From Anaerolineae bacterium (GTDB lineage: Bacteria > Chloroflexota > Anaerolineae > SpSt-313), in NCBI GenBank assembly GCA_034428955.1, contig DAOUGZ010000024.1:5804-69803 (forward strand): a stretch of 64,000 nt of DNA, read 5' to 3'. The notes beneath the pieces were generated by a model. That model was not told the origin of the DNA. It made no database searches and saw only the letters and a list, made by a program, of their open reading frames with translations. Positions 46,359 to 64,000 of this stretch are shown one piece after another (the first letter of the stretch is position 1; every line of letters starts with the position of its first letter). A program made the translations under genes and the position numbers.

Positions 46359-46368
46359 GGAGTAACCC

Positions 46369-47322
46369 ATGCCCGACCTGATCACCTTTGGCGAGACGAT
46401 GGTCCTCTTTAGCCCGCTCTCCGAGGGACCCCTGCAGTACGTCTACCACTTTGAGAAACGCTTTGCGGGCGCAGAGAGCAACGTGGCCATCGCCACCGTG
46501 CGCCTGGGCCACTCGGCCGGCTGGATCAGCCGCCTGGGTGACGATGATTTCGGCCGCTACATCCTCTGTGGCCTGCGCGGCGAGGGGGTCGATACGAGCC
46601 AGGTGCGCCTCAGCGCCGCGCAGCCCACCGGCGTTTTCTTTCGCTCGCGCGGCTCCGTCGGCGGCGGGAGCGAAACCTTTTACTACCGGCACAACTCGGC
46701 GGCCTCGCAACTGGCCCCAGAGGACCTGGACCCGGCCTACTTTCAGGGGGCGCGCGTGTTGCACCTCACGGGCATTACGCCGGCCCTGAGCGCCGACTGC
46801 CGCGCCGCCACCTATCGGGCCATCGAGTTGGCCCGTCAGGCCGGGCTTTTGATCTCCTTCGACCCCAACCTCCGCCTCAAGCTGTGGCCAGTCGACGAGG
46901 CCCGGCGCGTGCTCTGCGACCTGGCCTCGCGCGTCGATATCGTCCTGCCCGGGCGCAGCGAGTGCGCCATCCTCTACGGCACCGAAGACGAGCGCAAAGC
47001 CGCCGGGGCCATCCTGGCCGCCGGCGCGCGCCTGGTCGTGGTCAAACTGGGGACGGAAGGGGCCTATATCCGCACAGCCGGCGAGGAACTGCGCGTGCCG
47101 GCTGTGCCCGTGGGCCAGGTCGTCGATCCCATCGGCGCCGGCGACGGCTTTGCCGCCGGCTTTCTGGTAGGTCAGATGGAAGGCCGCTCGCTGGCCGAGT
47201 CCGCCCGCCTCGCCGTCACCATCGGTGCCTTTGCCACCGCCACGGCGGGCGATGTGGAGGGCTACCCCAGCCGCGCGCGCGTAGAGGCCTACTGGGCCGG
47301 CCGCGCCCCCCGCGAGCGCTAG
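46369..47322 (+). CDS. kdgK: PfkB-family sugar kinase (2-dehydro-3-deoxygluconokinase-like).
   Basis: N-terminal GETMVLF.. and C-terminal DPIGAGDGFAAG PfkB signature. Confidence 0.8.
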   Translation: MPDLITFGETMVLFSPLSEGPLQYVYHFEKRFAGAESNVAIATVRLGHSAGWISRLGDDDFGRYILCGLRGEGVDTSQVRLSAAQPTGVFFRSRGSVGGGSETFYYRHNSAASQLAPEDLDPAYFQGARVLHLTGITPALSADCRAATYRAIELARQAGLLISFDPNLRLKLWPVDEARRVLCDLASRVDIVLPGRSECAILYGTEDERKAAGAILAAGARLVVVKLGTEGAYIRTAGEELRVPAVPVGQVVDPIGAGDGFAAGFLVGQMEGRSLAESARLAVTIGAFATATAGDVEGYPSRARVEAYWAGRAPRER

Positions 47323-47362
47323 TGCGCGCATCCCAAACTCGCCGGAAACACAAAGACCGTAT

Positions 47363-47401
47363 ACCAAGTGTTCATGGGTGCGGCGCTCATGAACACTTGG
47401 T
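47363..47401. repeat. Perfect 14-bp inverted repeat (accaagtgttcatg / catgaacacttggt) with 11-nt loop.
   Basis: Seen directly in the sequence, 40 nt after the kinase stop. Confidence 0.7.
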
Positions 47402-47509
47402 GATATGTGCCCGTTCACTCAGCAACGATAGCGCTGATTACCGGCTTGAGGCTCCGGCCTTTCGCCGCTATAATTCGCCGCAGATCACAGGAATGGAGGA
47501 TGCCCCGTA

Positions 47510-48733
47510 ATGGCCGAGCCCCGTACCTATCGCCCCTGGCCCCCGGCGTTGATGACCTCCGAGCCGGGTTCCTTTGCCGAGGCGACCATCGTCCGCCGCA
47601 AACCGCAGATCATCCGCGACGTGCTGTGCGACAACGACTATCCCCCCGAGATCGCCCACGCCTTGCGTGCATTGGCGGTCGAGATCGAGAGCCGCGAAAT
47701 CCAGCCGCTGGTCGAGCCGGCGCCGGACCTGGATGAGTGGCAGGCGCAGTGGTGCCCCTACGCCGGGCTCACCTGGCGGCAGGTGCCCTGGTATTTTGCC
47801 GAGGCATTCTTTTATCGGCGCCTGCTGGAGGCGGTGCGCTACTTCCAGCCCGGCCTCTGGCAGGGGCACGACCCCTTTGCCCTTCAGAAGCGACGCCAGA
47901 TCGATGGACCCGCCGGGGCGCTCGAACAGGCGGCCGAGCTGCTCCCCGAGCTGCCGCCGGACCCCGTCGAGGCAGCCCATGCGCTGATCTATGCCTCGCT
48001 TTGGGGCAATCGCGTGGACCTCTCCAACAGCCAGATCCTGGCCGGGGCGGCGCTGCAGGCAGGCCACCCGCACGATGTGCTGATCGACGACAGCCCAGAG
48101 TTGCTGGCCTACCTGACCGGCCAGGGGCCGCACGCCCGCGTCGACTTTATCTGCGACAACGCCGGCCCCGAGGCCGCCTTTGACCTGCTGCTGACCGATG
48201 CCATCCTAGAGCAGGGATGGGCCCGCCGGGTGCGCATGCACCTCAAGCCCTATCCCTTCTTCGTCTCCGACGCCATGCCCAGGGATGTACGCGAACTCAT
48301 CGTCAGGCTGCAGGGAGCGCCGGAGTCGCTGACCCGCGCCGCCGGAGACCGCCTGGCCAGCCGCCTGCAGGCGGGAGCTCTGGAGCTGGTGGACCACCCC
48401 TTCTGGGGCAGTGCCCGCCACTTTGTCGAGATGCCGAGTGAACTGCGCGCCGAGCTGGGGCAGGCCGGTCTCGTGCTCATCAAGGGCGACGCCAACTACC
48501 GGCGCCTCCTCGGAGACCGCCACTGGCCATCTACAGAGCGGCTGGAGGAGATTGCCGGCTACTTCCCCGTGCCCTTTGCCGTGCTGCGCACCCTGAAGGC
48601 GGAGATCATGGTCGGGTTGGAGGAGGGGCAGGCCGAACTCTTGGCGAAGGAAGACGCAGACTGGCTCATCAATGGCCGGCGCGGGATCATCCAATTTGTC
48701 GTGCCCGCCGGGGAAGAGCCGCTGTTCAAATAA
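47510..48733 (+). CDS. DUF89/ARMT1-like damage-control phosphatase family protein.
   Basis: C-terminal ..LIKGDANYRRLLGDR.. signature and overall length (~407 aa). Confidence 0.7.
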   Translation: MAEPRTYRPWPPALMTSEPGSFAEATIVRRKPQIIRDVLCDNDYPPEIAHALRALAVEIESREIQPLVEPAPDLDEWQAQWCPYAGLTWRQVPWYFAEAFFYRRLLEAVRYFQPGLWQGHDPFALQKRRQIDGPAGALEQAAELLPELPPDPVEAAHALIYASLWGNRVDLSNSQILAGAALQAGHPHDVLIDDSPELLAYLTGQGPHARVDFICDNAGPEAAFDLLLTDAILEQGWARRVRMHLKPYPFFVSDAMPRDVRELIVRLQGAPESLTRAAGDRLASRLQAGALELVDHPFWGSARHFVEMPSELRAELGQAGLVLIKGDANYRRLLGDRHWPSTERLEEIAGYFPVPFAVLRTLKAEIMVGLEEGQAELLAKEDADWLINGRRGIIQFVVPAGEEPLFK

Positions 48734-48840
48734 CCGCCTCAGGGGGCGCATAAACTGCAAACGGCCAAAGCCGTCACTACGTGGGAGGGAGTTGCCTCAG
48801 TCCATGTAGTGACCGCTTCAGCGGTTCCCGCCCCAGGGGT

Positions 48841-49218
48841 CTACCTGGTGGGTGGAGCATCTCCCTCTTCCGCTGAGAGGAGCCGGCCGACGACCTCTTC
48901 GAGGGTATCCAGGTCAAAGGGCTTGGGCAAGAGTAGCGTGCCGGGGCAGTCACCCGCAGACAGCCTGCCGGCCGTCATGAGGATGACAGGAATTGATGCC
49001 GTATCGGGGGAGGCGTGGAGCTGCTGGCAGAGTTCCAGGCCGTTCATGATCGGCATCATGATATCGGTCAGCACCAGATCCGGGTGCTCGCGGCGGGTTA
49101 CATCCAGGGCCGCGCGGCCGTCATAGGCACGAAGCACGCGATAGCCGATGTCTTCCAGCAAAGAGCCGACAAACTCGACCACCGCTTCCTCGTCATCGAC
49201 CACGAGAACAGTCTTCAC
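48841..49218 (-). CDS. Single-domain response regulator (CheY-like receiver).
   Basis: VLVVDDE.. D-box; ..LVLTDIMMP..; conserved Lys (LPKP). Confidence 0.8.
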   Translation of the reverse strand: MKTVLVVDDEEAVVEFVGSLLEDIGYRVLRAYDGRAALDVTRREHPDLVLTDIMMPIMNGLELCQQLHASPDTASIPVILMTAGRLSAGDCPGTLLLPKPFDLDTLEEVVGRLLSAEEGDAPPTR

Positions 49219-49590
49219 GACGGCTCCTTACACAGGCCTCAGGCGAGCCCAGGTGCGCCACCACGCTTCAGGAGTGCCGGGGTCACACAGGTCCGAGCAG
49301 ATCCTCCGGCGCCGCAAGCGGCGCGTCTTGACTGTCCGCATCTCTGTGCAGCACGGCTGGGCATGGCCCGTCGGCCCGACCGTGCTCGGACGCCACAGCC
49401 CGGCCTGCACCGGCAATGCACTGCATCTGGCCAATCCTAGCAAATCCTAGGCCAGCGCGACGAGGCCGATCAACACCAGTTCCGTCTGTCCACATCGGAG
49501 TCGCTCAATAGCGCGCAACTCCCTCATTCGAGGCGCCGTCGCACGTCTGAGTCGGCCGGTGATGCATGGTGTGGCTCTTGTAAAGCCAAG

Positions 49591-49623
49591 AAGGCGGGGG
49601 AAGGAAAACTCCCCCCGCCTTCC
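49591..49623 (-). terminator. Intrinsic terminator-like hairpin downstream of dnaK (ggcggggg..ccccccgcc).
   Basis: aaggcgggggaaggaaaactccccccgccttcc, 15 nt after the dnaK stop. Confidence 0.65.
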
Positions 49624-49637
49624 TCAGGCAGATGTCA

Positions 49638-51545
<1,908 letters not shown>

Positions 51546-51688
51546 GGGTTGAGCCTCCTAGATAATGAAACGTCAAACGTCATGCGTCAAACGTGATATA
51601 CGCTGCGTACTGCGTGATGCGTGCTGCGTAAGGTAGCCTGCAGCGGCAAACGCCGCAACGAGAGAGGTTACGCAGTACATAGTACGCA

Positions 51689-52300
51689 TCACGTATCAGC
51701 CCCGGCTTGCTCTTCTTCAGTTCCTCCGGTTGCCTCGTCCGTTACGGTGGGCGTCACAGCGACCTTGACCATCGCCGGCCGCAGGATGCGCCCGTGATAC
51801 TCGTAGCCACACTGCAGGTCGGCGACGACCTGCCCATCGGGGTAGGCGGTCGTCTCCTCGCGCAGCACCGCGTGGTGCCGTTCGGGGTCGAACATCTGGC
51901 CGGTCGCCTCAAAGCGCTTGAGCCCCGCTTGCTCGAGGGTTTGCTCGAACTTGCGTCGGATGAGCAGGATGCCCTCAACCCAGCTCAACTGGCTGAGGTC
52001 GGCCGGCAGGGTGGCCATCGCCCGGTCCAGATCGTCGAGGACGGGCAGCAACTGAGTCAGTAGCAGGCTGTTGGCGAAACGGGTAGACTCCTCGCGCTCG
52101 CGCTCGGTGCGCTTGCGATAGTTGGAGAACTCGGCCGCCGTACGGCGCCATTGATCCAGATACTCTTCTGCCTGACCCTTGGCCTTTTCCAACTCCGCTG
52201 CCAGGTCCTCCTGGGCCGGCTGCACGGACTCGGCCTCCGGCGCTCCATCCGGGGTCGTGGGCTGTGCGGACTCTGTGCCCCTCTCGTTCTCATCAACCAT
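51689..52300 (-). CDS. grpE: Nucleotide-exchange factor GrpE.
   Basis: GrpE C-terminal domain signature; position between hrcA and dnaK. Confidence 0.9.
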   Translation of the reverse strand: MVDENERGTESAQPTTPDGAPEAESVQPAQEDLAAELEKAKGQAEEYLDQWRRTAAEFSNYRKRTEREREESTRFANSLLLTQLLPVLDDLDRAMATLPADLSQLSWVEGILLIRRKFEQTLEQAGLKRFEATGQMFDPERHHAVLREETTAYPDGQVVADLQCGYEYHGRILRPAMVKVAVTPTVTDEATGGTEEEQAGADT

Positions 52301-52340
52301 GATTGGCGTTCCACCTCCATCACAGCGAGCTGCAATCTCA

Positions 52341-53375
52341 TCAATACCCGTGCATCTGCTCGACCAGGTTGCTCAGCAGGCGCGCCACAAAACGCACTGC
52401 CGAGATGGCCCGGCCGTAGGGCATGCGCGTGGGGCCAAGAACCCCCACCACGCCGTTAGCCTCACCCCGCACCCCATAGGGTGACAAGACAAGGCTATAG
52501 TCTTCCATATCTCCCCAGCGCCCCTCTCCGCCGATGATGACCTGCACGCCGTTCGCCCACAGAACGTCGGCGATGATAGCCTCCAGCAGGCTGCGCCGTT
52601 CCAGCAGCTCCACCACTTGGCGGAACTTGTCCACCTCGGCAAACTCGGGCTGGCGCAACACCTGCAGCAGCCCGTCGCGGTGGATATCACTCTCCATCCG
52701 CCGGTCCATCTGCTGCATCTGGCTGACGATACATTCCAGGACGTGCCGCTCCAGCCCCGAAAGGTTGGCGTGGGCCAGGGGGCCGGTGCGAATCTCGCTG
52801 GTGTTGGCCGTGCCCAGGAGCGCGTTCAGGCGGTTCGTCGCCTGAGTCAGCTCCTCTTCGCTCGTCGCCGCCGGCAGCGGCATCACCTGTTGGCGGATGC
52901 TGCCGTCATGGCAGATGAGGATGAGCAAAGCAGTGACCTCGCTGAGCGAGATCAGTTCGACATGCCGGAAACGAGTCTGAGGGGCGCGAGGCGCCGTGAC
53001 TAGAGAGGCGCTGCTCGCCGCCTGCGCCAGCACAGCCGCCGCCAACTTCATCCACTGCCCCAGGTCCAACTGAACCTGGTGGAACTGGTGGCTGATCATG
53101 CGCTGCTCACTGGGGGGCAACTCGGTATCCCGCATCAGCCGGTGCACAAAGTAGCGATACCCCTTGTCGGTCGGCATGCGGCCGGCCGAGGCATGGGTCT
53201 GCATGAGGTATCCCTCGCGCTCCAGGAAGGCAAACTCGGAGCGCACCGTGGCCGGGCTGACGTCCAGGCCGTAGCGTTGCACAATGGCCTTGGAGCCAAC
53301 CGGCACGGCCAGCGCAATATACTCACGCACGACGATACCGAGGATTTCCTCTTGCCGGCGGGTCAGTTGCTCCAT
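52341..53375 (-). CDS. hrcA: Heat-inducible transcription repressor HrcA.
   Basis: N-terminal winged-helix (..LTRRQEEILGIVVREY..VGSKAI..); length 344 aa; CIRCE operator upstream. Confidence 0.9.
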   Translation of the reverse strand: MEQLTRRQEEILGIVVREYIALAVPVGSKAIVQRYGLDVSPATVRSEFAFLEREGYLMQTHASAGRMPTDKGYRYFVHRLMRDTELPPSEQRMISHQFHQVQLDLGQWMKLAAAVLAQAASSASLVTAPRAPQTRFRHVELISLSEVTALLILICHDGSIRQQVMPLPAATSEEELTQATNRLNALLGTANTSEIRTGPLAHANLSGLERHVLECIVSQMQQMDRRMESDIHRDGLLQVLRQPEFAEVDKFRQVVELLERRSLLEAIIADVLWANGVQVIIGGEGRWGDMEDYSLVLSPYGVRGEANGVVGVLGPTRMPYGRAISAVRFVARLLSNLVEQMHGY

Positions 53376-53575: not shown

Positions 53576-54766
53576 TTAGGAAGGCAGCAAGCGCCGAGGC
53601 AGGACCCCATTGCCCTGTACGTCGGCGGCATCGTGAAAGGCCGCGAGTTCACTCAGGGCTGTGGAGAATGCCGACTGGAAGGCCGCATCCTCGTACAGCG
53701 ACTCGTCGGCCAGGTGGATGCCCTGTACGATCAAGCGCCGGCGCGACCAGCTCATCTGCGGCTCAATGCGCCCCACCAGCGTATCGCCATAGAGGATGGC
53801 CAGCGCGTGGGCCGAGAACTGCCGGCGCAGCGCGGCCGCGCGCGATGCAGGCTGGCGCCAATCGTAGGCAAAAAAGTCCCGAGCGCGCTGGCTGTCCCAA
53901 ACGACCGGGTCGAGGGGCGAGAGAAAGAAAACGTGCGGCGCAGACGGCCCAGGCTGCGCGCCAAGCGGCAGCCAATCAGCCGGCAACAGGTAGGTCTCGA
54001 AAGGGTCCTCGACCCGCACCTGGATCACCTTGCCCTCCGCCAAGAGCTCGTCCATCACCCGGTTCTTTTCGCGTTTCATCGCCGCCAGGCCCAGGCGCGC
54101 GCGCGAGCCGATCCCATTCAGGACCTGGCTCCAACTGGTTCGGGTCATCGGCGCCAGGATGCACAGAGCGCGCCAGGCCAGTGTGTGCAGGCGCTCGTGG
54201 AGCGGCAGGGAATGGCGCTGACAATCCGGCAGAACGCGCTCCGCCAGGTCATAGACCTCCTGGCCGATCTCGCGATCATCGACCAGGATAGCTCCGCTGC
54301 TGTGGAGATCGTGGATGGCGCGCCCGATGGCCCGCCGGTCGGTCTTGCCCTGGCCGCGCAGAAAGAACTGTAGGTCGCGCAGAGTAGCCGCGCCCTCGTC
54401 CTCGAGGTAACCCAGCACCAGGTCCCCCAGAGACCCCGGGCGTGATGCAGCCTGGATGCGCTCGGGGTCATAGATCAGCACATAGTCCTCAGCCGGCAGC
54501 ACCCCAGGCAGATGCAGGCAATGCTCGAACAGGCGCCCGCGCTCGTAGAGAGCGGTTTCCAGGCCGCCGATGCGGTAGGCCTGGACGCGGCCAAAGAGGG
54601 CGATATCGTGGCTGGGCGCCAGGGCGTGGGTGCGCAGCTCCAGGGGCAGGAACCCCTGGCGGCTGACCCAGGTGACGGCGCCATCCATCCCTCTCAGGCG
54701 CCGCTCTCCCAAGAGTCCTTGCCGGCGCAGCAACAGGCGCCTCAGCTCTTTGCGCGTGGTGAGCAT
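53576..54766 (-). CDS. Winged-helix DNA-binding protein of the AlkZ/YcaQ-like (HTH_42/DUF1006) family; putative DNA glycosylase.
   Basis: N-terminal MLTTRKELRRLLLRRQGLLG.. typical of the family. ORF extends to 54856; ATG 54766 preferred. Confidence 0.6.
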   Translation of the reverse strand: MLTTRKELRRLLLRRQGLLGERRLRGMDGAVTWVSRQGFLPLELRTHALAPSHDIALFGRVQAYRIGGLETALYERGRLFEHCLHLPGVLPAEDYVLIYDPERIQAASRPGSLGDLVLGYLEDEGAATLRDLQFFLRGQGKTDRRAIGRAIHDLHSSGAILVDDREIGQEVYDLAERVLPDCQRHSLPLHERLHTLAWRALCILAPMTRTSWSQVLNGIGSRARLGLAAMKREKNRVMDELLAEGKVIQVRVEDPFETYLLPADWLPLGAQPGPSAPHVFFLSPLDPVVWDSQRARDFFAYDWRQPASRAAALRRQFSAHALAILYGDTLVGRIEPQMSWSRRRLIVQGIHLADESLYEDAAFQSAFSTALSELAAFHDAADVQGNGVLPRRLLPS

Positions 54767-54982
54767 TCGATCCTCCTTGACGCACTCTGGTGACTGTGCT
54801 ATCTTCACCGCCAATGGGCAACGGTCACCACGACACCCCCGGCTGGCTGAACGCATGGATGGCGCCGGCCCGCGGCGGGCCTCCAGGTCAGGGCTGGGTA
54901 CTGGTCAGCCCCGCATCCCTGGTTGTTCGGTTGGCGGCGGCCAGCAGAATCTATGCAAGCCACTACTACTCAGGAGTATGCT

Positions 54983-56413
54983 ATGGCCCGTTATGAAGAT
55001 GCCGACTGGCGCGACTCGATGCGTATCCGCTACGACTATACGAACATGCTGGCTGATGTAGTGGGCGAGAAGCGTGGCGCCTCTGAGAACGATGTGAACC
55101 AGATGAGCTTTCGCCTCGCAGCCGCCCTCGACGTGCTGCGCATGCGCCGTGGCCCCAAAGACCTCGCCTGGACGGACCTGCCCTACCAGGAGGACATGGT
55201 CCTCGACATCCTCTCCTACGCGCGCGAGGTCGAAGGCGTCTACGACGACATCCTCGTCCTCGGCATCGGCGGATCGGCCCTGGGCGTGACAGCCCTCAAG
55301 ACGGCGCTCCTGCCGTTCTATTCCGATATAATGTCGCCCGAAGAGCGCCGACACCCCCGTTTGACCGTGCTCGATAACGTCGACCCCGACTGGGTCATGG
55401 CCGCCCTGCAGCGGTTGGACCCCGAACGCACGCTCTGCCTCGTCATCAGCAAGTCGGGCAGTACGACGGAGACGATGGCCCAATTCCTCATTGCCCGCAC
55501 TTGGCTCAGAGAGCGCCTGGGCGACGGCGCCGCCTGCCACATCGTGGCCATTACGGATCCGGAAAAGGGTCCCTTGCACGACATCGCCGAGCGTGAGGGC
55601 TATCGCACCTTCCCGATACCCCGGGGGGTCGGCGGGCGCTATTCCGTCCTTTCGCCGGTGGGGCTCGTCCCTGCGGCCCTGGTGGGCATCGACATCCAGG
55701 AACTGCTGGCCGGCGCCGCCTATTGCGACAAGCTCTGCAGCGTGAAGGACCTGTACAAGAACCCGGCCGGCATGAGTGCTGCCCTGCAACGCCTGGCCTA
55801 CGACCGGGGCCAGCGCATCTCGGTCATGATGCCCTACAGTCAGCGCCTGCGAGACATCGCCGACTGGTTCCGGCAGCTCTGGGCCGAAAGTCTGGGCAAG
55901 AAGATGAACACCCTGGGCCGCCGCGTGCACCTGGGGCCGACGCCCGTCCTGGCCCTGGGCACGACCGACCAGCACTCGCAGATTCAGCTCTATGTCGAGG
56001 GCCCGCCGGACAAGGTCATTAACTTTGTCGCTGTTGAGCGCTTTGCCGAGGAAGGCCCAATCCCCGCGACCGGCGAGGAAGATGGCGAGATCGCCTTCCT
56101 GGGCGGGCACACCCTGGCCGAACTGATCAATGTGGAGCGCGAGGCGACCATGGCCGCGCTCACCGAGGCCGGCCGCCCGAATTGCACCCACTTTCTCCCG
56201 GAGGTCAACGCTTTCACCGTCGGCCAGTTCCTGTACATGCTGGAGATGCAAACGGCCATCGCTGCCCTCTTCTTTGCCGTCAATGCCTTCGACCAGCCCG
56301 GCGTAGAGGCGGGCAAGGTGGCAACCTATGCCCTGCTCGGCCGGCCCGGCTATGAGGAGCGGGCAATCGAGATGCGCTCGGCCCAGGCCGCGCGGCCGCG
56401 CCACGTTATCTAG
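54983..56413 (+). CDS. pgi: Glucose-6-phosphate isomerase.
   Basis: ATG 54983 after AGGAG; ISKSGSTTET signature. Confidence 0.9.
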   Translation: MARYEDADWRDSMRIRYDYTNMLADVVGEKRGASENDVNQMSFRLAAALDVLRMRRGPKDLAWTDLPYQEDMVLDILSYAREVEGVYDDILVLGIGGSALGVTALKTALLPFYSDIMSPEERRHPRLTVLDNVDPDWVMAALQRLDPERTLCLVISKSGSTTETMAQFLIARTWLRERLGDGAACHIVAITDPEKGPLHDIAEREGYRTFPIPRGVGGRYSVLSPVGLVPAALVGIDIQELLAGAAYCDKLCSVKDLYKNPAGMSAALQRLAYDRGQRISVMMPYSQRLRDIADWFRQLWAESLGKKMNTLGRRVHLGPTPVLALGTTDQHSQIQLYVEGPPDKVINFVAVERFAEEGPIPATGEEDGEIAFLGGHTLAELINVEREATMAALTEAGRPNCTHFLPEVNAFTVGQFLYMLEMQTAIAALFFAVNAFDQPGVEAGKVATYALLGRPGYEERAIEMRSAQAARPRHVI

Positions 56414-56415
56414 TA

Positions 56416-56468
56416 ATAGAGATTCTGATGGATGCGAACCGCCCCATGCGACGCCATGTTACTCATCA
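56416..56468 (+). repeat. Dispersed ~50-nt intergenic element, copy 2 (tagagattctgatggatgcgaaccgccccatgcgacgccatgttactcatca).
   Basis: ~85% identical to 2053-2103; begins 3 nt after the pgi stop. Confidence 0.7.
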
Positions 56469-56660
56469 AGACTGGTGCAGCGCAACAATAGTCGTGTTCC
56501 ACGGACCCTGACGCGCTTGGCCCGTCAGGCATGTGACGCAACACCAGACCATACTGCTTGCATCAGATCACTATCGTTTTTCCGTCAGTAGCCAGGGATT
56601 CGGATTTCCTGTATAATGGCAGCAGCAGGTTGAACCCATGGAAAAACGAGGTCTAACCGT

Positions 56661-58022
56661 ATGGCGGAGTCTCACGACGCTCGGTGCATGTCGTCCGCTC
56701 CTCAGGCGGATGCACTGAGCGCCGACGCTCTGTACAAACAGGGCATGGCCCATTACCGCCGTCGTCAGTGGCGCCAGGCCTGGGCAAGTTTCCAGGGGCT
56801 GAAGCAGGCGGACCCGAGTTGTCGAGAGATCGATACACTGCTCGACGAACTGGATATTTTTATCCGTCTGGAATCGCTCACTTCTACGCCTTCCCCCGAC
56901 GAGGCTTGTGAGCCTGTCGCGTCGTCACCCTCGCCCTCATCTCATCTACAAACGCTTGTGGGGCCCGCACTGGCCAGGCCCATCTGGCGCCCACTGGCCG
57001 TTGCCGGCATCTTGCTATTGGCCTGCCTGATATACGGTGCGGCGAACCCGCATCTCGTCCAGCGTATGGCGGATCTGCGCGCGCGCGCGCAGGCCCACCA
57101 GGCGGCCGGGCAGTGGAATGAAGCCATCAACACCTACGAGCGGCTGCTTCTCTTCGCCCCGAGCGATTGGCAGGTCCGCAAGGCGCTCTCGGCAAGCTAT
57201 GACGAGCGAGGCCAGCAGCGCGCAGCGCAAGCTGAAGCCCTGGAGGAGCGTGCCCAATACCGCGAGGCCGCGCAGCAATGGGAGATGGCCCTAGCCGATT
57301 TCGAGGCGGCACGCGACGTTGCTCGCTCCGAGAGCGGTCCGGCGCCCCAAATCACCCTGGCCCAACAGCGCCGCCACGCGGCTGGCCTGATGGACGGGGC
57401 TATCAGATTGGCCGAAAAGGGGCGCTGGATAGAAGCTATCCAAACCTTGCAGACGCTGAGCGCCGAGCAGCCCGGCTACCGCACGGCCGAGGTGCAGGCC
57501 CACCTGAGCTACGCCTGCCTGCAGGCCGGCAACGCTCGCATCACCTCCGCCACTAGCCCCAGCGGGGTGCGCGAGGGCATCCGCCTGATCGAGCAAGCCC
57601 GCGCTGCCCAGCCGGAGAGCGCCGCGGCCCGTATTGTCCTGGCCCAGGCGCGCATCTATCTGTGGGCACTGGCCGGCATCGAGAGCGAACAATGGAATCT
57701 GGCCGTCTGCACGCTGCAGGGCCTGCTGCGGGCCAACCCAGGCTATGCTGGGGGGCGAGCGAGTGACCTCCTCTGCCAGGCACTCATGCAGCGCGCCGCC
57801 GCTCGCTATCAGGCGGGCGACCTGCGCCTGGCGCTGGACGACTATGAGGTCGTGGCCAACAGCGGCTGCGCCCAGCAGCCCGAAGCCGCACGAATAGCGG
57901 GCAATATCGCCATGGCCCTCACCCCGACCGCTACGCCCACCACCCGGCCGACGCCAACGGCGATGCCGACGCTCTCGCCGACCCCGGCTCTCATGGTCAC
58001 GCCCACGCCCGCACAGCCCTAG
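56661..58022 (+). CDS. Membrane-anchored TPR-repeat protein with C-terminal Pro/Thr-rich tail.
   Basis: TM segment (LAVAGILLLACLIYGAA); multiple TPR-like helical repeats. Confidence 0.65.
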   Translation: MAESHDARCMSSAPQADALSADALYKQGMAHYRRRQWRQAWASFQGLKQADPSCREIDTLLDELDIFIRLESLTSTPSPDEACEPVASSPSPSSHLQTLVGPALARPIWRPLAVAGILLLACLIYGAANPHLVQRMADLRARAQAHQAAGQWNEAINTYERLLLFAPSDWQVRKALSASYDERGQQRAAQAEALEERAQYREAAQQWEMALADFEAARDVARSESGPAPQITLAQQRRHAAGLMDGAIRLAEKGRWIEAIQTLQTLSAEQPGYRTAEVQAHLSYACLQAGNARITSATSPSGVREGIRLIEQARAAQPESAAARIVLAQARIYLWALAGIESEQWNLAVCTLQGLLRANPGYAGGRASDLLCQALMQRAAARYQAGDLRLALDDYEVVANSGCAQQPEAARIAGNIAMALTPTATPTTRPTPTAMPTLSPTPALMVTPTPAQP

Positions 58023-58040
58023 AGCCTATCGGAAAGAATT

Positions 58041-59132
58041 GTGAAGAGCACCGTATTGCGATGGGGAAGGCGCCTGTATCACGCCCTCCGCGCCAGGCAG
58101 AACACCCGCTGGGCGCAGGCCGGCTGGCTGCTGGTGGGCTTTGGCCTGCCGCTCCTAGCCTTTCCCCTGGCCCGCCGTGCCCCCCAAGGCGGCTATTGGG
58201 AACCGGTCAGCGCGTTGGCCGCGCCGGCGAGCGTGCACCTGGTAGCCTCAGGCGCTGCGGAAGGGCAAACGGTCCTCTATGTGGCCGTTGAGGATTGGGG
58301 CATCTTTCGCTCTGAAGACGGTGGCAGAAACTGGGCTGCGGCCAATCGCCTGCCACGCGATGAACAGGGCAGGCTGCATATCGAGGCCATAGCCGTCTCG
58401 CCGCAAGACCCGCAGGTCGCCCTGGCCATGGTCGACAATGAGGCCGTCGCCGGTTGGGCACCAATATACAAAACGGCGGACGGCGGGCGCACCTGGATCG
58501 CGCGGCGTGGCTTGCTCCCCCTCAACCTAGAGGCTATCGCCATCGGCCCAGCCGGAACCGCCTACGCCGCCCACGGCTGGCGCATCTACCGCAGCCCCAA
58601 CGAGGGCGATACCTGGCTCCAGGCGGGCCGGCGCCCTCCGGCCGGGCGCGCCTTGGCCATCGCCGAGGACGGTGTGACGGGCGCTCTCTATGTGGGCACC
58701 GAGGATCAGGGTCTGTGGGCCACGATGGATAACGGGATGAGTTGGTATCCCTCTCTCCCCCATCGCTCCGTGTATGCCATCGCCGCCTCCGACAGCGGCT
58801 GGGTCTACGCCGGCACCCAGGATGGGCTCTACTGCAGCACAGACCACGGCGCTTCCTGGCGCGCACTGGGACCTCTGGGCATGGACGGCCACCCAGACGC
58901 GCTAGCCGTCCGCTCCGGGTCGCCGGACAGTCTCTTCGTCAGCCTGGAGGGCCGGGCGATCCTTCACTCTCCGGATGGTGGCGCCAACTGGCAGGCCCTG
59001 CCGCCGGTACCTGTCGGGGTCGAGGTCACCGCGCTGGCCGCCGACCCGCTCTCGCCCGAGCAACTCTACGTGGGTACCACCCGCGGGCTCTGGCGTTGCC
59101 GCCTGCAGCCCCCGTCCGCCGGGGGAGGGTAG
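58041..59132 (+). CDS. BNR/Asp-box repeat beta-propeller protein (Ycf48/sialidase-like), N-terminal TM/signal.
   Basis: Six S-x-D-x-G-x-(T/S)-W Asp-box repeats (SEDGGRNW, TADGGRTW, SPNEGDTW, TMDNGMSW, STDHGASW, SPDGGANW). Confidence 0.7.
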   Translation: MKSTVLRWGRRLYHALRARQNTRWAQAGWLLVGFGLPLLAFPLARRAPQGGYWEPVSALAAPASVHLVASGAAEGQTVLYVAVEDWGIFRSEDGGRNWAAANRLPRDEQGRLHIEAIAVSPQDPQVALAMVDNEAVAGWAPIYKTADGGRTWIARRGLLPLNLEAIAIGPAGTAYAAHGWRIYRSPNEGDTWLQAGRRPPAGRALAIAEDGVTGALYVGTEDQGLWATMDNGMSWYPSLPHRSVYAIAASDSGWVYAGTQDGLYCSTDHGASWRALGPLGMDGHPDALAVRSGSPDSLFVSLEGRAILHSPDGGANWQALPPVPVGVEVTALAADPLSPEQLYVGTTRGLWRCRLQPPSAGGG

Positions 59133-59140
59133 AGGTCACT

Positions 59141-61411
59141 GTGATCGCATCTAGGGATGGCACGAACCGGTCACCTCGCCTGGATGCCCTCCTGGCCGAT
59201 GAAGGCCGCCTGGGCACGCCCCTACGCGCCCTCCTGTGGCTTGCCGGGCTCATGCTCCTGCGGGCCGTGCATGGGGGCAGCCTCTCCGCCGGCGCCTCAT
59301 GGGTGTTGCGGCTCTATCTGGCCATCATCCTTCTCATCGCCGCGGCCGTCGTGCTACGGCTCACCCCCGTCGGGCGGCGGCTCCGTTCCGACGACCTGAG
59401 TCGCTCGCTGCTGCTGGGCGCCTCGCTCGTGGACCTGCTGTTCATCAGCCTGCTCGTCTTCCACAGCGGCGGCCCCCTCAGCGACGCCGCCCTGCTCTAC
59501 CCCCTGCTGATGCTGCGAGTAGCCACCCTGTACCCTACCCTGCCCGAGAGCGCCGCCGTGGCCGTTCTGTGTGGGCCGGCCTACGCGGGCACGCTCTATC
59601 TGCAGGCCGGCGGCTGGTTCTTCCTCACCCAGCCGTTCTTTGTCTGGCGATATCTGGCCCTGTTCGCCGCTTCACTGGGCGGGCTCGCGCTCGGTTGGAC
59701 CCTCGCCGGCTACCAGCGCCGCTTGCAGGAGGTCGAGGCCCGCTTGAACTCGAGCCGCGGCGACATGGCCCGCCAGACGTTGACCCTGCAGCAGACCGCC
59801 GCTGACCTCAGCCGGCGCGTGCAGCAACTGCGGATGCTCCAGGAAGGCATCAAGGCCATCAACTCGTCGCTGGCCCTGGAAGACTTGCTGACCCTGATCG
59901 TCACCAACGCCGCCCAAGTTGTGCGCGAGGCACGCTGCTCCCTGGCTCTCGTCGATGACGACTCCGGCTTTGCCTCGGTGCGCGCCGTATCGGACCTGCC
60001 GGCAGACCGCATGCGGGCTACCCACCTGGCCGCCGGCGAAGGGATCGTCGATTGGGTCGTCCGCACCGCCATGCCGGCGCGCATCGCTCGCGCGGCGGAT
60101 GACCCGCGCATCAAGGGAACGCCCGACCCCGGCGTCGCTTCACTGATCAGCGTACCGCTAACCGCCGGTGGCCGCGTGCTCGGCGCCCTCACGGCCACTG
60201 CCCCCAATGAGGATGCCTTTTCCGATGAGGACCTGGAAGCGCTGGCCGCCTTTGCCGCCCAGGCCGTGGTGGCCGTCAAGAACGCCCGACTATATCAGAG
60301 CGTTCAACAGCGGCGTAGCGAGCTGGAGGCCATGCTGCGCGGCATCGGCGACGCCGTCATCGCCACGGACTCGCGCCTGCGCCTGACTCTGCTGAACCCC
60401 ATCGCCGCCCGCGTTTTCGGCGTCTCCCCGGGGGTCACGGCCGGCCAGCCCCTGCCGGAGATCATCGCCAACCCCGACCTGATCGCCCTTTCTGCCGATG
60501 CTCTGAAAGGGGGCGAGGAATCGCTCATCCGCGAGTTCGCCTTGCCTACCGAGCCGGGAGGGCAACCGCCGCGCTTTTACCAGGCCCTGGCCTCACCGGT
60601 GCGCGACGAGGAGGGGGAGGTGGGCGGCATCGTCATCGTCCTGCGGGATATCACCGAGCAGCGCGAACTAGATAGGGTCAAGTCGGACTTTTTGTCCGTC
60701 GTTTCCCACGAACTCAAGACGCCCCTGCATTCGATCAAGGGCTTTGTAGACATCATCCTCATGGGCAAGACGGGTCCGGTTACCGCCACCCAACGCGACT
60801 TTTTGGGCACCGTGAAGCAGCAGGCCGACGCTCTGCAGAGTATGATCAATGACCTGCTCGAGTTCTCGCGTCTGGAAGCGGGGCGCGTCCGCCTGCGCAT
60901 CGAGCGCCTGCTGTTGGGGCAGTTGGTACGCGGAGTGGTGGCGCGCCTGGAACCGCTGGCCGAGGAGGCGGGCCTGAGCCTGGTGAACGAGGTTCCCGGC
61001 GATATGGGGCTCATCTCGGCCGACGAGGCGCGCATCGAGCAGGTCGTCACCAACCTGCTCTCCAACGCCATAAAGTTCACGCCCCAAGGCAGTGTGACCA
61101 TCAGCGCCGTCGACCTGGGCGATGAGGTCCAGGTCACCGTGGCTGATACCGGCATCGGCATCCCCGCCGGGCAACTGGAGCGCATCTTTCAGCGCTTTTA
61201 CCAGGTGGACGGCACGGTCACCCGCTCCTACCGCGGCGCCGGGCTGGGTTTGACAATCTGCAAACATATTGTAGAGTATCATGGAGGGCGCATATGGGTG
61301 GAAAGCACGGAGGGCCAGGGCAGCGCCTTTCACTTTGTGCTGCCCAAGAGCCAGCATGATCCCGACGCCCCACCCATCAGCTTCTCCGTTCTGCCGCCCA
61401 GCCGTTCCTAG
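59141..61411 (+). CDS. Sensor histidine kinase: multi-TM N-terminus, GAF, PAS, HisKA and HATPase_c.
   Basis: GTG 59141 (ORF extends upstream, overlapping the previous gene). H-box SHELKTPL; G-boxes GAGLGLTICK. Confidence 0.8.
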   Translation: MIASRDGTNRSPRLDALLADEGRLGTPLRALLWLAGLMLLRAVHGGSLSAGASWVLRLYLAIILLIAAAVVLRLTPVGRRLRSDDLSRSLLLGASLVDLLFISLLVFHSGGPLSDAALLYPLLMLRVATLYPTLPESAAVAVLCGPAYAGTLYLQAGGWFFLTQPFFVWRYLALFAASLGGLALGWTLAGYQRRLQEVEARLNSSRGDMARQTLTLQQTAADLSRRVQQLRMLQEGIKAINSSLALEDLLTLIVTNAAQVVREARCSLALVDDDSGFASVRAVSDLPADRMRATHLAAGEGIVDWVVRTAMPARIARAADDPRIKGTPDPGVASLISVPLTAGGRVLGALTATAPNEDAFSDEDLEALAAFAAQAVVAVKNARLYQSVQQRRSELEAMLRGIGDAVIATDSRLRLTLLNPIAARVFGVSPGVTAGQPLPEIIANPDLIALSADALKGGEESLIREFALPTEPGGQPPRFYQALASPVRDEEGEVGGIVIVLRDITEQRELDRVKSDFLSVVSHELKTPLHSIKGFVDIILMGKTGPVTATQRDFLGTVKQQADALQSMINDLLEFSRLEAGRVRLRIERLLLGQLVRGVVARLEPLAEEAGLSLVNEVPGDMGLISADEARIEQVVTNLLSNAIKFTPQGSVTISAVDLGDEVQVTVADTGIGIPAGQLERIFQRFYQVDGTVTRSYRGAGLGLTICKHIVEYHGGRIWVESTEGQGSAFHFVLPKSQHDPDAPPISFSVLPPSRS

Positions 61412-61510
61412 CCTTAAATCTGTGCCTGGCAGCAGCCGGCCCAGAGAATCCGCTCCGGCCCTATGCAAAGCATGGTGCCGGGATGCCACAGCGCAAGAGT
61501 GAAGGTAGCC

Positions 61511-62557
61511 ATGGACTCTACCCATATCAAGACCGTTCGCTACTTTATCGCCGGCCTGGGGGCCATCGGCCGGCGCTTTGTGGGGTTGACCCAAAGCCAA
61601 GGGGCGCTGCTCGCGGGGCGCTATGGCCTACGCCTGCTGGCGGTGGGCGCGGCCGACTCCTCCGGCGCCGCTCTGGATTCCGCAGGGCTCGACCCGGGCC
61701 GGATTGTCGCCCTGAAGGAGGCCGGCCAGGGCGTGGCCACCTACCCCGGCACCGGGCGGCCACACATGCCCGTCGACGCGGCGTTGGCCCAGTCGCAGAT
61801 CGACCTCCTGGTCGAGGCGACGCCGACCAACCTGCGAGACGCCCAGCCCGGCCTGGGCTGCATCCGCGCCGCCCTCTCGCGCGGGGTGCCCGTCGTCACG
61901 GCCAGCAAGGGCCCGCTTGTGCTCGCCTATCAAGAGTTGGCCTCCCTGGCACAGCAGATGGGGGCGCGGCTGGCCTTCAGCGGCGCCGTGGCCGGCGGCC
62001 TGCCCACCATCAACCTGGGCCGGCGCGACCTGGCCGGCGCCACGGTGCAGCGGGTCGAAGGCATCTTTAATAGCACCACCAACTATATCCTCACCACCAT
62101 GGCCGAAGAGGGCCTCCACTTCAGTGCAGCCCTGGCCGAGGCCCAGCGCCGCGGCGTCGCCGAGGCCGACCCCAGCCTGGATGTAGACGGCCTGGACGCC
62201 GCAGCCAAACTGCTCATCGTCGCCAACAGCGTCCTGGCGCAGCCCACTGCCCTGGCCGATATCGCCGTCGAGGGCATCCGCGGCATCTCGACGGAACGCC
62301 TGGCCGAGGTGGGGCGCCAGGGGCGGGTGCTCAAGCTGCTGGCCCTGGCCGAGCGGGTGGGAGATGTCTACCGCCTCTCCGTTCGCCCCACAGCACTCGA
62401 GCGCAGCCACCCCCTGGCCCAACTGCGTCCGTGGGAGATGGGCGTGCGCTACACGACCGATACCATGGGCGTCATCTACTCGGTGATCGATGAACCGGAC
62501 CCGTTGCCGACCGCGGCAGCGGTGTTGCGCGATGTGATCGACGTCCTCGGCGGATAG
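61511..62557 (+). CDS. hom: Homoserine dehydrogenase.
   Basis: ATG 61511; NAD-binding N-terminus; ..GIFNSTTNYILTTM.. catalytic-region signature. Confidence 0.85.
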   Translation: MDSTHIKTVRYFIAGLGAIGRRFVGLTQSQGALLAGRYGLRLLAVGAADSSGAALDSAGLDPGRIVALKEAGQGVATYPGTGRPHMPVDAALAQSQIDLLVEATPTNLRDAQPGLGCIRAALSRGVPVVTASKGPLVLAYQELASLAQQMGARLAFSGAVAGGLPTINLGRRDLAGATVQRVEGIFNSTTNYILTTMAEEGLHFSAALAEAQRRGVAEADPSLDVDGLDAAAKLLIVANSVLAQPTALADIAVEGIRGISTERLAEVGRQGRVLKLLALAERVGDVYRLSVRPTALERSHPLAQLRPWEMGVRYTTDTMGVIYSVIDEPDPLPTAAAVLRDVIDVLGG

Positions 62558-62568
62558 GGAGAGGAGAG

Positions 62569-63999
62569 ATGCTGCGCGCCATCGGCATCGACCTAGGAAC
62601 CAGCAAGGCCGCCGTCAGCACGCTGCAGCGCGGCGAGGCGGTGGCCGTCTTTGGCCGCGAGCGTAGCCCGCTGGTTCCCTCGCTGCTGGGTTTCGGCCCG
62701 GCCGGCCGCCTGCTGCTGGGGCAGGAGGCGCGCACCCTGGGCGGCGAGGCTGCCGTGCACGTGGGCTCGCTCTTCCGCCCGGAAGCCGGCCGCTTGCCGC
62801 GCACGCCGCGCAGCCGGCGGCATACGCCGGTCGACCTTGTGGCCCTCTTCCTGGCCCAGCTCCGCCAGGGGGCCGAGGCGGCCCTCGGCGAGCCCGTGCG
62901 CCGGGCCGTGCTGACGGCCCCGGTCTCGGCCGGCCAGGCCCAACTGGCTGTGCTGCATGAGGCTGCCGCCCTGGCCGGGCTCTACACCCTGGCTATCATC
63001 CCTGCGCCCCTTGCCTTCCTCCTGGCCTATGCTATCGAGCACCCCCAGAGCCCGCATCGCCTGGTCCTGGTCTTTGATCTGGGCGCCGGTGGGCTCGATG
63101 TGACCGTGGCGCGGCTCTTCCATGGGGCGATGACCGTGCTGGGGCTGGCCGGTGAGGACTGGCTGGGGGGAGAGGACCTGACCGACACGATCGTCGCGGC
63201 GCTGCTCCGGCGCCTGCAGGCCGAGCGCCGGCTGCCTCTCGACGAGAGCCAGGCCGCCCGCCGGCGCCTGCGCCGGCGCCTGCATCTTGTGGCCGAGGAG
63301 GCCAAGGTGGCTCTCTCGACCGTCGATCGCGTGACCATCCCACTGACTCGAAAGACAACGGGTTTCGCCGTGAACCTGAGCGAGACGGTGACCCAGGGCG
63401 AGTACGAGGCGTTGATCCGGCCCCGCCTGGACGAAGCCCTTGAGGTCTGCAACCGGGCGTTGCTGGCCGCCGGGCTGGCGAGGGAGCGGATCGACGGCAT
63501 CCTGCTGGCGGGCGGCTCCAGCCGTATCCCCTTCGTCCAGAACCTGCTCGCGCAGCATTTTCCCAATGCCCACCTGCTGCGCGACGTGAACCCGCTGCTG
63601 GGCGCGGCCATGGGCGCCGCGCTGATGACGGGGCTGCTGCCGGAGGTGCCCTGCCCCGCCTGCGGCCGCCGTAACCCTATCGAACGGCTCGCCTGCGCGG
63701 GCTGTGGAACCGCTCTGGCCGGCGAGGAACGGGTGACCTGCCCCCGCTGCTTCCTGCTCAACGATGCCCGGCGGCGCGCCTGCCGCGGGTGCGGGGGGTC
63801 ACTGCGCGGCGCCCTTCTACAGAGCACGCGGGCCCACCCGGCGCATCACACCTGTTGCCCGCGCTGCGGCGTGCCCATGCCCCACAGCCGGGCCACCTGC
63901 GCCGCCTGCCACGCTCCACTCGGCGAGCCCCAACCCACCGGCCTGCGCTGCCCCCACTGCACTGAGGTATTGCCGGCGGGCAGCTATGCCTGCCCGGCC
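62569..63999 (+). CDS. Hsp70-family (DnaK-like) ATPase domain fused to C-terminal repeated C-x2-C zinc-ribbon modules; 3' end beyond the window (partial).
   Basis: ATG 62569 after GAGGAG. IGIDLGTSKAAV.. and ..LLAGGSSRIPFVQ.. actin-fold motifs, then CPACGRR..CAGCG..CPRC..CRGCG..CPRCG..CAAC..CPHC.. . No stop before 64000. Confidence 0.75.
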   Translation, partial: MLRAIGIDLGTSKAAVSTLQRGEAVAVFGRERSPLVPSLLGFGPAGRLLLGQEARTLGGEAAVHVGSLFRPEAGRLPRTPRSRRHTPVDLVALFLAQLRQGAEAALGEPVRRAVLTAPVSAGQAQLAVLHEAAALAGLYTLAIIPAPLAFLLAYAIEHPQSPHRLVLVFDLGAGGLDVTVARLFHGAMTVLGLAGEDWLGGEDLTDTIVAALLRRLQAERRLPLDESQAARRRLRRRLHLVAEEAKVALSTVDRVTIPLTRKTTGFAVNLSETVTQGEYEALIRPRLDEALEVCNRALLAAGLARERIDGILLAGGSSRIPFVQNLLAQHFPNAHLLRDVNPLLGAAMGAALMTGLLPEVPCPACGRRNPIERLACAGCGTALAGEERVTCPRCFLLNDARRRACRGCGGSLRGALLQSTRAHPAHHTCCPRCGVPMPHSRATCAACHAPLGEPQPTGLRCPHCTEVLPAGSYACPA

Positions 64000-64000
64000 T

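Follow-up and report, generated by a model that had tools for sequence, protein, structure and literature searches.

An Hsp70-family protein without a lid and with four predicted zinc ribbons at the linker junction, encoded beside hom in an Anaerolineae bacterium

Results

The locus and the full-length protein

The stretch of DNA analysed here, referred to as the window, comprises 64,000 nucleotides of contig DAOUGZ010000024.1 from an Anaerolineae bacterium (assembly GCA_034428955.1), and ends within an open reading frame (ORF) that starts at ATG 62569 on the forward strand and stays open for 477 codons up to the window end. A preliminary description, made from the sequence alone, had read this frame as a second Hsp70-type nucleotide-binding domain (NBD) followed by an array of CxxC pairs, a reading that Pfam HSP70 and DZR matches bear out. 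Seven complete CxxC pairs lie in the window (C362/365, 376/379, 391/394, 405/408, 430/433, 444/447 and 461/464), with the eighth (C475/478) severed by its edge. The window ORF is the first 477 codons of a 601-residue Hsp70-family protein, termed Hsp70-ZnR here, with the full-length sequence (P0001, 100% identical to the window ORF) found on a 70.5-kb NCBI contig. Past the eighth CxxC pair P0001 reads ...CPACGELAGPFVGNISRRALGIEGEDGRLDVILPRGQSIPSP...IYEGDRP...VRVGFALGRDGLL..., and its layout is that of an NBD (residues 1–357), four Cys4 ribbons (360–480), a P-F-V-G linker (484–487) and a β-type substrate-binding domain (SBD-β, ~491–597), with no lid. The linker, SBD-β and the stop after residue 601 fall outside the window.

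Alignment with the DnaK encoded in the same window places the cysteine array exactly between the last NBD helix and the interdomain linker, and since SBD-β follows the ribbons, these are an insertion at the NBD/linker junction rather than a C-terminal fusion. The preliminary description of an NBD fused to zinc ribbons was thus right as to the parts, both of which are present, but not as to their arrangement, and the lack of a substrate-binding domain, true of the visible portion, was an artefact of the window edge. A canonical substrate-binding domain and lid, the marks that had been named for an ordinary DnaK paralogue, give a mixed outcome, with SBD-β present, the lid absent and the cysteines conserved. 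A membrane-associated role, also raised there, gains no support, with no transmembrane segment apparent in the sequence by eye, no predictor having been run. The features of the locus, together with the positions of the long-form loci described below, are collected in Table 1.

Table 1. Features of the Hsp70-ZnR locus, in window coordinates, and positions of the long-form loci.
Feature	Location	Strand	Evidence and remarks
Canonical hrcA-grpE-dnaK operon	49638..53375	-	dnaK 49638-51545; grpE 51689-52300 (GrpE 2e-45); hrcA 52341-53375 (HrcA 4e-47)
Sigma-70-like match TTGACA-16-TAGAGT	61250..61277	+	In 3' end of histidine-kinase gene, 185 nt upstream of hom
hom (homoserine dehydrogenase)	61463..62557	+	Pfam Homoserine_dh 2e-49
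11-nt spacer with GGAGAGGAG, ribosome-binding-site-like (Shine-Dalgarno-like)	62558..62568	+	Read from sequence
Hsp70 NBD, residues 1-357	62569..63639	+	Pfam HSP70 profile 1-375; residue comparisons; AlphaFold2 pLDDT mostly >85
Zinc ribbon 1, residues 360-381 (C362, C365, C376, C379)	63646..63711	+	DZR match 362-409; Cys 15/15; pLDDT ~90
Zinc ribbon 2, residues 389-410 (C391, C394, C405, C408)	63733..63798	+	Cys 15/15; mean pairwise identity 0.61; pLDDT ~90
Zinc ribbon 3, residues 428-449 (C430, C433, C444, C447)	63850..63915	+	Cys 13/15; pLDDT 52-69
Zinc ribbon 4, residues 459-480 (C461, C464, C475, C478)	63943..64000	+	Cys 15/15; cut after C475-P-A at window end; pLDDT ~90
Long-form module	L007:271-10942		Kitasatospora sp., JBHXEM010000073.1; module context
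Long-form module	L010:478-7424		Module context
Long-form module	L011		Module context
Long-form module	L012:2641-12568		Module context

Two antisense ORFs overlap the gene, at 62593-63573 (-) and 63027-63827 (-), with lengths of 326 and 266 aa. As the plus-strand frame has strong homology support, these are most likely high-GC artefacts.

Family assignment and the substrate-binding half

The Pfam HSP70 profile matches the window ORF with E=3e-52 over profile positions ~1–375 only, the part that corresponds to the NBD, with the members tested giving E values of 3e-52 to 8e-56 over positions 1–375. Pfam DZR (PF12773) scores 42 bits against a cut-off of 27.3 on the window ORF, and 42–54 bits against this gathering threshold in six members of the short form, as Hsp70-ZnR and its orthologues are called here in distinction from the longer relatives described below. 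The NCBIfam models for DnaK (TIGR02350, 194.2 bits against 822.55; NF001413, 185.1 against 648), HscA (TIGR01991, 161.1 against 708.55; NF003520, 166.6 against 620) and YegD-type proteins (NF008673, 56.7 against 331) all score far below their curated cut-offs, in keeping with the view that this is not an ordinary DnaK, HscA or YegD, and no isc genes lie near Hsp70-ZnR in the window. Hsp70-ZnR belongs to the Hsp70 superfamily (PF00012), since both the NBD and SBD-β are present; the lid and the catalytic residues K70, E171 and T199 that mark an Hsp70 are lacking. A DnaJ-type zinc finger was considered for the cysteine array and rejected, there being no CxxCxGxG motif and no match to Pfam DnaJ_CXXCXGXG.

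A profile of the C-terminal half of the family aligns with residues 386–485 of the window's DnaK, comprising the linker and SBD-β, with 96.4% probability and an E value of 1e-9 (hhalign), and the C-terminal 123 residues alone match HSP70 profile positions 393–484 with 16.9 bits. None of the 15 members of the orthologue set has residues in the alignment columns of the DnaK lid, the protein ending a few residues after the last β-strand. At the linker site (DnaK L390–L392), a conserved P-F-(V/I)-G, and not the VLLL motif, aligns, preceded by the insertion of ~120 residues. The pocket positions 401, 426, 436 and 438 are hydrophobic in short and long forms alike.

An AlphaFold2 model of P0001 built on the family alignment (mean predicted local distance difference test score, pLDDT, 86; predicted template-modelling score, pTM, 0.88) shows no helix beyond residue 421 and eight β-strands at residues 485–600. 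The best Foldseek matches are ATP-state, docked or open structures, namely DnaK 4B9Q, on which the model superposes, and BiP-ATP 5E84 (TM 0.70–0.71, root-mean-square deviation (rmsd) ~4–5 Å), with lid-truncated BiP (6EOF, 6EOB) giving a TMt of 0.80 and ADP-state Hsp70 structures matching more poorly (TM ~0.5, rmsd 19–25 Å).

At the extreme C-terminus, 11 of the 17 short forms compared have a Trp among their final ~8 residues, in most cases preceded by an acidic residue or His (...LEWAP, ...DWPG, ...HWPA, ...LEWQ), which may be a docking motif. It is absent from the window's protein (...VELARS) and five others.

Conservation of the zinc ribbons

The array matches Pfam DZR and Zn_Ribbon_1, and its four Cys4 modules are best read as zinc ribbons, with zinc binding predicted from the spacing and conservation of the cysteines. 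In a set of 15 orthologues (569–617 aa, 45–55% identical), ribbons 1, 2 and 4 keep all 12 of their cysteines without exception, and the four of ribbon 3 are present in 13, the whole ribbon having been cleanly deleted in P0014 and P0015; ribbon 3 is thus dispensable. None of the six cysteines of P0001 that lie outside the ribbons is conserved among orthologues. Ribbons 2 and 4 are the best conserved, and the net charge of the array is basic in all 15 members, ranging from +1 to +15. The conservation of the cysteine pairs in homologues, proposed as a check in the preliminary description, therefore holds, as does the picture of an atypical second Hsp70-family protein with conserved zinc ribbons.

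Catalytic and nucleotide-binding residues

The canonical Hsp70 mechanism is thought to need K70, E171 and T199, a short hydrophobic linker, the lid, and J-domain and nucleotide exchange factor partners. In DnaK and Hsc70, K70 (Hsc70 K71) is indispensable for hydrolysis, with E171 and T199 contributing to hydrolysis and coupling. Residues were compared across 17 short and 23 long forms, using E. coli DnaK numbering transferred via the window's own DnaK. The phosphate-1 (DLGT), phosphate-2 (DLGGG) and adenosine (E267/K270/S274, GG..P) motifs are kept in Hsp70-ZnR. D8, D194, E267 and K270 are each found in all 17 short forms (23, 23, 22 and 22 of the 23 long forms, respectively) and S274 in 16 (21 of the long forms), with the glycine loops and G341/G342 also retained in the short forms.

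The catalytic residues behave otherwise. In P0001, K70 is replaced by R, E171 by A and T199 by G, and across the short forms Glu171 is never present (S, A, D or G taking its place) and neither is Thr199, compared with 23/23 and 22/23 long forms, respectively. Lys70 persists in two of the 17, with the segment deleted in five, and in 22/23 long forms. The complete set of three is found in 0/17 short forms and 22/23 long forms. In addition, N13 of the phosphate-1 loop is Lys in 17/17 short forms and in none of the 23 long forms, and the F-(V/I)-G at L390–L392, invariant in the short forms, is variable in the long forms. Since the catalytic residues are lost while the binding motifs are kept, we infer from these alignments that Hsp70-ZnR binds nucleotide with little or no turnover, the gain of Lys13 being the chief caveat.

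Long forms and the origin of the short form

A profile of the zinc array and SBD-β, run exhaustively with HMMER against 1.84 billion representative proteins, matched 25 of them at E<1e-30 and 356 at E<1e-10. A word-indexed protein search with a profile of the same region had returned one new partial member only; it was the hidden Markov model scan that exposed the long forms. Its top matches comprise four short-form representatives and proteins of 800–860 aa that match the whole profile at residues ~375–620, the latter giving up to 441 bits with the Pfam HSP70 NBD, as well as DZR matches. These long forms, exemplified by Kitasatospora WP_380547601.1 (P0126), the database name of which is only "Hsp70 family protein", carry two to four ribbons at the same insertion site and canonical motifs. 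Their C-terminal region of ~195 aa is predicted to form eight helices (residues 646–838, AlphaFold pLDDT 81.5), and occupies the sequence position of the lid at about twice its size. Long forms occur in Actinomycetota and other groups, not only in Chloroflexota.

In a neighbour-joining tree (464 NBD and SBD-β columns, 100 bootstraps), all ribbon-bearing forms group together against DnaK in 100/100 replicates and the short forms make up a single clade with a long stem, likewise in 100/100. The long forms alone are monophyletic in only 1/100; the long forms are therefore paraphyletic, and the short form is a derived, reduced lineage. On this sequence tree the short form is nested in a wider, apparently undescribed class of long forms, and has lost the helical domain, the long-form neighbours and K70/E171/T199, and gained the invariant Lys13. 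The short-form family is rare and lineage-restricted. Some 18 clusters at 90% identity are known, the named ones from Anaerolineae or Chloroflexota metagenome-assembled genomes, and the family pattern recovered one of 185,579 species representatives in GTDB, together with three further metagenome loci.

The long forms sit in a gene module found in four independent contexts (Table 1), with the order Ser/Thr kinase (not in every case, and often with TPR), one or two large TPR proteins, a J-like protein of ~139 aa, a short GrpE, the Hsp70-ZnR long form, and a TPR-LysM/BON protein. The ~139-aa protein has no HPD motif, and its DnaJ match stays below threshold (23 bits against 27.8). The module looks like a dedicated Hsp70 system that has not been described; no description was found in the literature searched, and PADLOC gives no recognition. 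Directly upstream of the module in L012 (L012:1-2508) lies a large fusion of a CHAT peptidase, Clp_N and a double AAA (ClpB-like). A further member of the class, P0149 (731 aa), combines an Hsp70 NBD, DZR and SBD-β with a C-terminal TIR domain (TIR_2, E 6e-15); here too the catalytic residues have degenerated (K70 to S, T199 to S). This fusion hints that parts of the wider zinc-ribbon Hsp70 class are used in conflict or signalling systems.

Genomic context

The gene is co-directional with hom across an 11-nt gap, as first read from the sequence. One promoter-like site was found, compared with 0.4 expected from shuffled sequences, and this consensus match (61250..61277) is a possible promoter for a transcript of hom and Hsp70-ZnR. 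No terminator-like site lies within 58000-64000, and hence none between the two genes, for which co-transcription is the best reading of the sequence. Context was compared across 11 distinct short-form loci (the window, L001, L004, L006, L008, L013, L014, L015, L023, L024 and L025), with the downstream side judged from the orthologous loci. In 10 of the 11, hom lies immediately upstream, with a gap of 5–14 nt in five. The conserved upstream order is hrcA (-), AlkZ-like glycosylase (-), PGI, TPR, BNR/Sortilin-type propeller, GAF-PAS histidine kinase, hom and Hsp70-ZnR.

The eight-gene block at 53576-62557 of the window is also syntenic in L001, L004, L008 and L013, at a Hom identity of only ~75%, and its BNR/Sortilin-like propeller bears an N-terminal hydrophobic anchor. 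That the TPR, BNR and kinase genes might represent a reduced long-form module was considered and rejected, the TPR similarity being that of a single repeat (E 1e-6 over 72 aa), compared with E values of 1e-15 to 1e-22 among the TPR proteins of the long-form modules. Given the lack of a specific relationship between the window's TPR protein and these, we make no claim that the two gene sets are the same module.

The downstream gene varies, being a Phd/YefM antitoxin, a 161-aa protein or DUF4432 on the opposite strand, or hutU with an OmpR-type regulator on the same strand; the neighbour is on the opposite strand in most loci. In a single short-form lineage (L008:10754-13123 and L009:3919-6288), hutU (urocanase) and the 3' end of the Hsp70-ZnR gene share 11 nt, and the OmpR-type response regulator follows on the same strand. 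The downstream J-domain partner that the preliminary description had suggested looking for did not emerge as conserved, and no J-protein, GrpE or other conserved partner is linked in the short-form loci examined.

The bona fide hrcA-grpE-dnaK operon recognised earlier is confirmed by alignment of its DnaK and by the GrpE and HrcA matches given in Table 1. The placement of Hsp70-ZnR "far" from it holds only loosely, since the operon lies just 9.2 kb upstream, at a spacing that related genomes share. No dnaJ follows hrcA-grpE-dnaK (46339-49638), the next recognisable gene being an ARMT1-like damage-control phosphatase at 47510-48733 on the opposite strand (E 3e-58), so dnaJ must be elsewhere in the genome.

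Rate of evolution and selection

Between the window and orthologous loci, Hsp70-ZnR is 43–54% identical, compared with 73–78% for PGI, 74–76% for Hom, 59–72% for the histidine kinase, 44–53% for the BNR protein and 38–41% for the TPR protein, a striking rate for an Hsp70 and one matched by the TPR and BNR proteins of the block (38–53% identity). Nei-Gojobori estimates from two close pairs give ratios of nonsynonymous to synonymous substitution rates (dN/dS) of 0.28 and 0.23 for Hsp70-ZnR overall, with 0.19–0.27 for the NBD, 0.33–0.34 for the zinc array and 0.23–0.29 for SBD-β, and values of 0.23 for hom and 0.11 for the kinase in the same genomes. All three parts of Hsp70-ZnR are under purifying selection, and with a dN/dS of 0.23–0.28 the fast divergence is therefore not decay.

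Discussion

Comparison with known Hsp70 systems

Hsp70-ZnR shares with DnaK, as encoded at 49638-51545 (-) in the window, the NBD fold, the nucleotide motifs and an SBD-β with a hydrophobic pocket. It is only ~30–35% identical to DnaK, and differs from it in the 120-aa insertion of four ribbons before the linker, the replacement of VLLL by P-F-V-G, the absence of the helical lid and C-terminal tail, the replacement of K70, E171 and T199, the change of N13 to K, and the lack of an adjoining grpE or dnaJ. The long forms have the same insertion site and SBD-β, and are set apart by their length (800–860 aa), helical C-terminal domain, intact triad (22/23), retained N13 and dedicated partners. The engineered lidless BiP constructs are among the best structural matches, these being artificial. 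Hsp110 (Sse1) has an Hsp70 fold and acts as an ATP-bound holdase or exchange factor rather than a foldase; it differs in keeping an extended lid and in carrying its insertion inside SBD-β, not at the linker, and Sse1 is a poorer match to the Hsp70-ZnR model (TM 0.64, 15% identity). The zinc-finger-like region of DnaJ, with CxxCxGxG repeats and two zinc centres, provides a conceptual parallel as a Cys-rich, zinc-binding client module of the Hsp70 system, whereas the ribbons of Hsp70-ZnR lack CxxCxGxG (for example CPACGRRN and CPRCFLLN) and are located in the Hsp70 itself.

CnuD and CnuCD, Hsp70-like proteins of Type III CoCoNuT restriction systems, likewise have an NBD and substrate-binding domain with degenerate ATPase motifs, predicted nucleotide binding and poor hydrolysis (PMC11090510). 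CnuD is defined by an operon with the McrB-like GTPase CnuB and the McrC-like CnuC (DUF2357), usually with HEAT-like repeats and HEPN RNases (PMC11090510), none of which lies near Hsp70-ZnR, and no zinc-ribbon insertion is reported for CnuD. The HSP70 of DO-GTPase/GAP1 conflict systems occurs with one or more DO-GTPases, GAP1, and often tubulin, GrpE and FNIII-DnaJ/TPR proteins (PMC7159879). No GTPase, tubulin or GrpE adjoins the short form, the neighbours of which are hom, the GAF-PAS histidine kinase, the BNR propeller, TPR, PGI and AlkZ, and the long forms, with GrpE and TPR present, have no GTPase recognised by Pfam. Because these defining neighbours are absent from the short form, Hsp70-ZnR is neither CnuD nor the DO-GTPase/GAP1 HSP70. 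Chloroflexi have been described as rich in DnaK paralogues, with no mention there of zinc ribbons or lidless forms (PMC11019930). No paper was found that describes zinc ribbons inserted at the linker of an Hsp70, a weak negative given that the search was made mostly without subscription journals.

A proposed role for Hsp70-ZnR and its alternatives

We favour, with a probability of about one half, the view that Hsp70-ZnR is a nucleotide-binding, low-turnover, lidless binder or adaptor of Hsp70 type that carries an additional, basic surface of zinc ribbons and whose gene is co-transcribed with hom. Such a protein would bind nucleotide and hydrolyse it slowly or not at all, and so would reside mostly in an ATP-like state with SBD-β docked on the NBD. 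Its lidless, still-hydrophobic pocket would bind extended peptides with fast on and off kinetics, while at the NBD/linker/SBD-β junction, which in DnaK is the site of J-domain action, the basic zinc array would furnish a second surface, a rigid one, for contact with a protein or nucleic acid. The 16 zinc-liganding cysteines could make this junction sensitive to oxidation or zinc loss. The role of Hsp70-ZnR would thus be that of a holdase or adaptor, not of a foldase that cycles ATP, and it would be made from the transcript of hom as part of the core genome of the lineage.

Several points weigh against this proposal. The low ATPase activity is deduced solely from the loss of residues in the sequence, and the invariant Lys13 could functionally substitute for K70. 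The residues of the pocket arch (DnaK M404 and A429) vary among short forms, so that peptide binding is not assured, and the docked, ATP-like conformation of the model may be the AlphaFold default for Hsp70s. The tree has an outgroup of three DnaKs only, with HscA and HscC not included. Finally, L006 lacks hom and has the kinase directly upstream instead, and, because the whole eight-gene block is conserved, adjacency to hom could be inherited synteny without functional meaning.

The alternative that we take most seriously, albeit as unlikely on balance, is that Hsp70-ZnR is still an ATP-cycling chaperone, with the catalytic lysine moved from position 70 to 13, the housekeeping DnaJ and GrpE as partners and the ribbons as a built-in client-binding module. 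WNK kinases, in which an active-site lysine has been relocated, are a comparable case. The change of N13 to K, universal among the short forms and never seen in the long, co-varies with the loss of K70, and the retention of all nucleotide-binding motifs, the purifying selection on the NBD (dN/dS 0.19–0.27) and the proximity of the canonical grpE-dnaK (9 kb) are all as this alternative would have it, with the conserved linker and SBD-β suggesting that the domains are still coupled. However, E171 and T199 are gone besides K70, and R167, which contacts the J-domain in DnaK, is Ala in P0001 and kept in only 11/17 short forms. Furthermore, a 120-aa insert occupies the place of J-domain docking, neither a J-protein nor GrpE is linked in short-form loci, both of which the long-form ancestors had, and without a lid there would be no trapping of clients after hydrolysis.

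It is improbable, by comparison, that Hsp70-ZnR is a binder of nucleic acids, probably RNA, in which a degenerate NBD and substrate-binding domain together with the basic ribbons would target RNA or ribosomes by analogy with CnuD. Zinc ribbons commonly bind nucleic acids, and every one of the 15 members has an array with a net positive charge, although this is modest in several (+1 to +6). The degenerate ATPase motifs parallel those of CnuD, which has been argued to bind ATP, barely hydrolyse it and bind RNA (PMC11090510), but the RNA binding of CnuD is itself a prediction, the hydrophobic peptide pocket of Hsp70-ZnR is conserved, and no nuclease, McrB-type GTPase, HEPN or other RNA-related gene lies nearby.

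A more speculative proposal, of similarly low probability, is that of a J-independent stress sensor and chaperone, in which Lys13 replaces Lys70 so that ATP is hydrolysed, and a four-zinc redox or zinc switch at the NBD/linker junction gives up its zinc when oxidised and so uncouples or activates the substrate-binding domain, the long-form class being an undescribed, signalling-linked Hsp70 machine. Hsp33 is a redox zinc switch and DnaJ carries a zinc-finger client module, and such a sensor-chaperone, if true, would unite the tasks of Hsp33, DnaJ and DnaK in one polypeptide.

The tight pairing with hom would be explained if Hsp70-ZnR were a dedicated partner of homoserine dehydrogenase, serving its assembly, stabilisation or regulation. 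This we consider quite improbable: whilst hom is directly upstream in 10/11 loci, with gaps of 5–14 nt in five and no terminator-like site between the two genes, the entire block of PGI, TPR, BNR, kinase and hom is syntenic, such that the adjacency may be inherited, and L006 has Hsp70-ZnR without hom. In addition, Hom is conserved at 74–76% and Hsp70-ZnR at 43–54%, giving no sign of co-evolution, and the long forms have no link to hom.

The preliminary description had also raised a role in a defence module, and a component of an anti-phage or conflict system, similar to the HSP70-containing GTPase-centred systems or the CoCoNuTs, now appears very unlikely. Class members with conflict-type features do exist, in the TIR fusion P0149 and the CHAT-ClpB-like fusion upstream of one long form, neighbourhoods with Ser/Thr kinases and TPR proteins recur among the long forms, and Hsp70-ZnR evolves fast. 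Nevertheless, PADLOC-DB 2.0 gives for the short form only a generic match to PDC-M61B over part of the NBD (20 bits, E 6e-5), and for the long forms and their neighbours nothing relevant, only a 15-bit match to PbeC. No effector, GTPase, McrB or tubulin genes lie nearby, and in all 11 loci housekeeping genes flank the gene within a stable block of the core genome, unlike a defence island. A defence role would predict the reverse of what is seen, namely the gene at the same locus in all members of the lineage that were sampled.

Lastly, a non-functional relic of a long form, decaying after the loss of its partners, might be read from the lost catalytic triad, lid-like domain and co-chaperone genes and the low identity among orthologues, but this pseudogene reading is essentially refuted by the dN/dS of 0.23–0.28 (each domain <0.35), alongside intact full-length ORFs in ~18 lineages, 12 invariant cysteines, many invariant Gly and Pro residues, and the subfamily-specific invariant gains of K13 and the F-V-G linker.

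Significance

Few proteins are as conserved or as well understood as the Hsp70s. Hsp70-ZnR is a natural, selected Hsp70 that breaks four of their rules, having no lid, no catalytic triad, a 120-aa zinc module at the linker and no linked co-chaperones, and that nonetheless keeps its nucleotide- and peptide-binding features. As such, it offers a natural test of which parts of Hsp70 allostery can be spared, and of whether an active-site lysine can be relocated. Practical impact would be modest unless a function is shown, the family being rare and known solely from metagenome-assembled Chloroflexota. Hsp70-ZnR also draws attention to a broader class that appears to be unstudied, zinc-ribbon Hsp70s that have GrpE, J-like, TPR and kinase partners of their own, and this long-form class, with its module, may be the more consequential lead.

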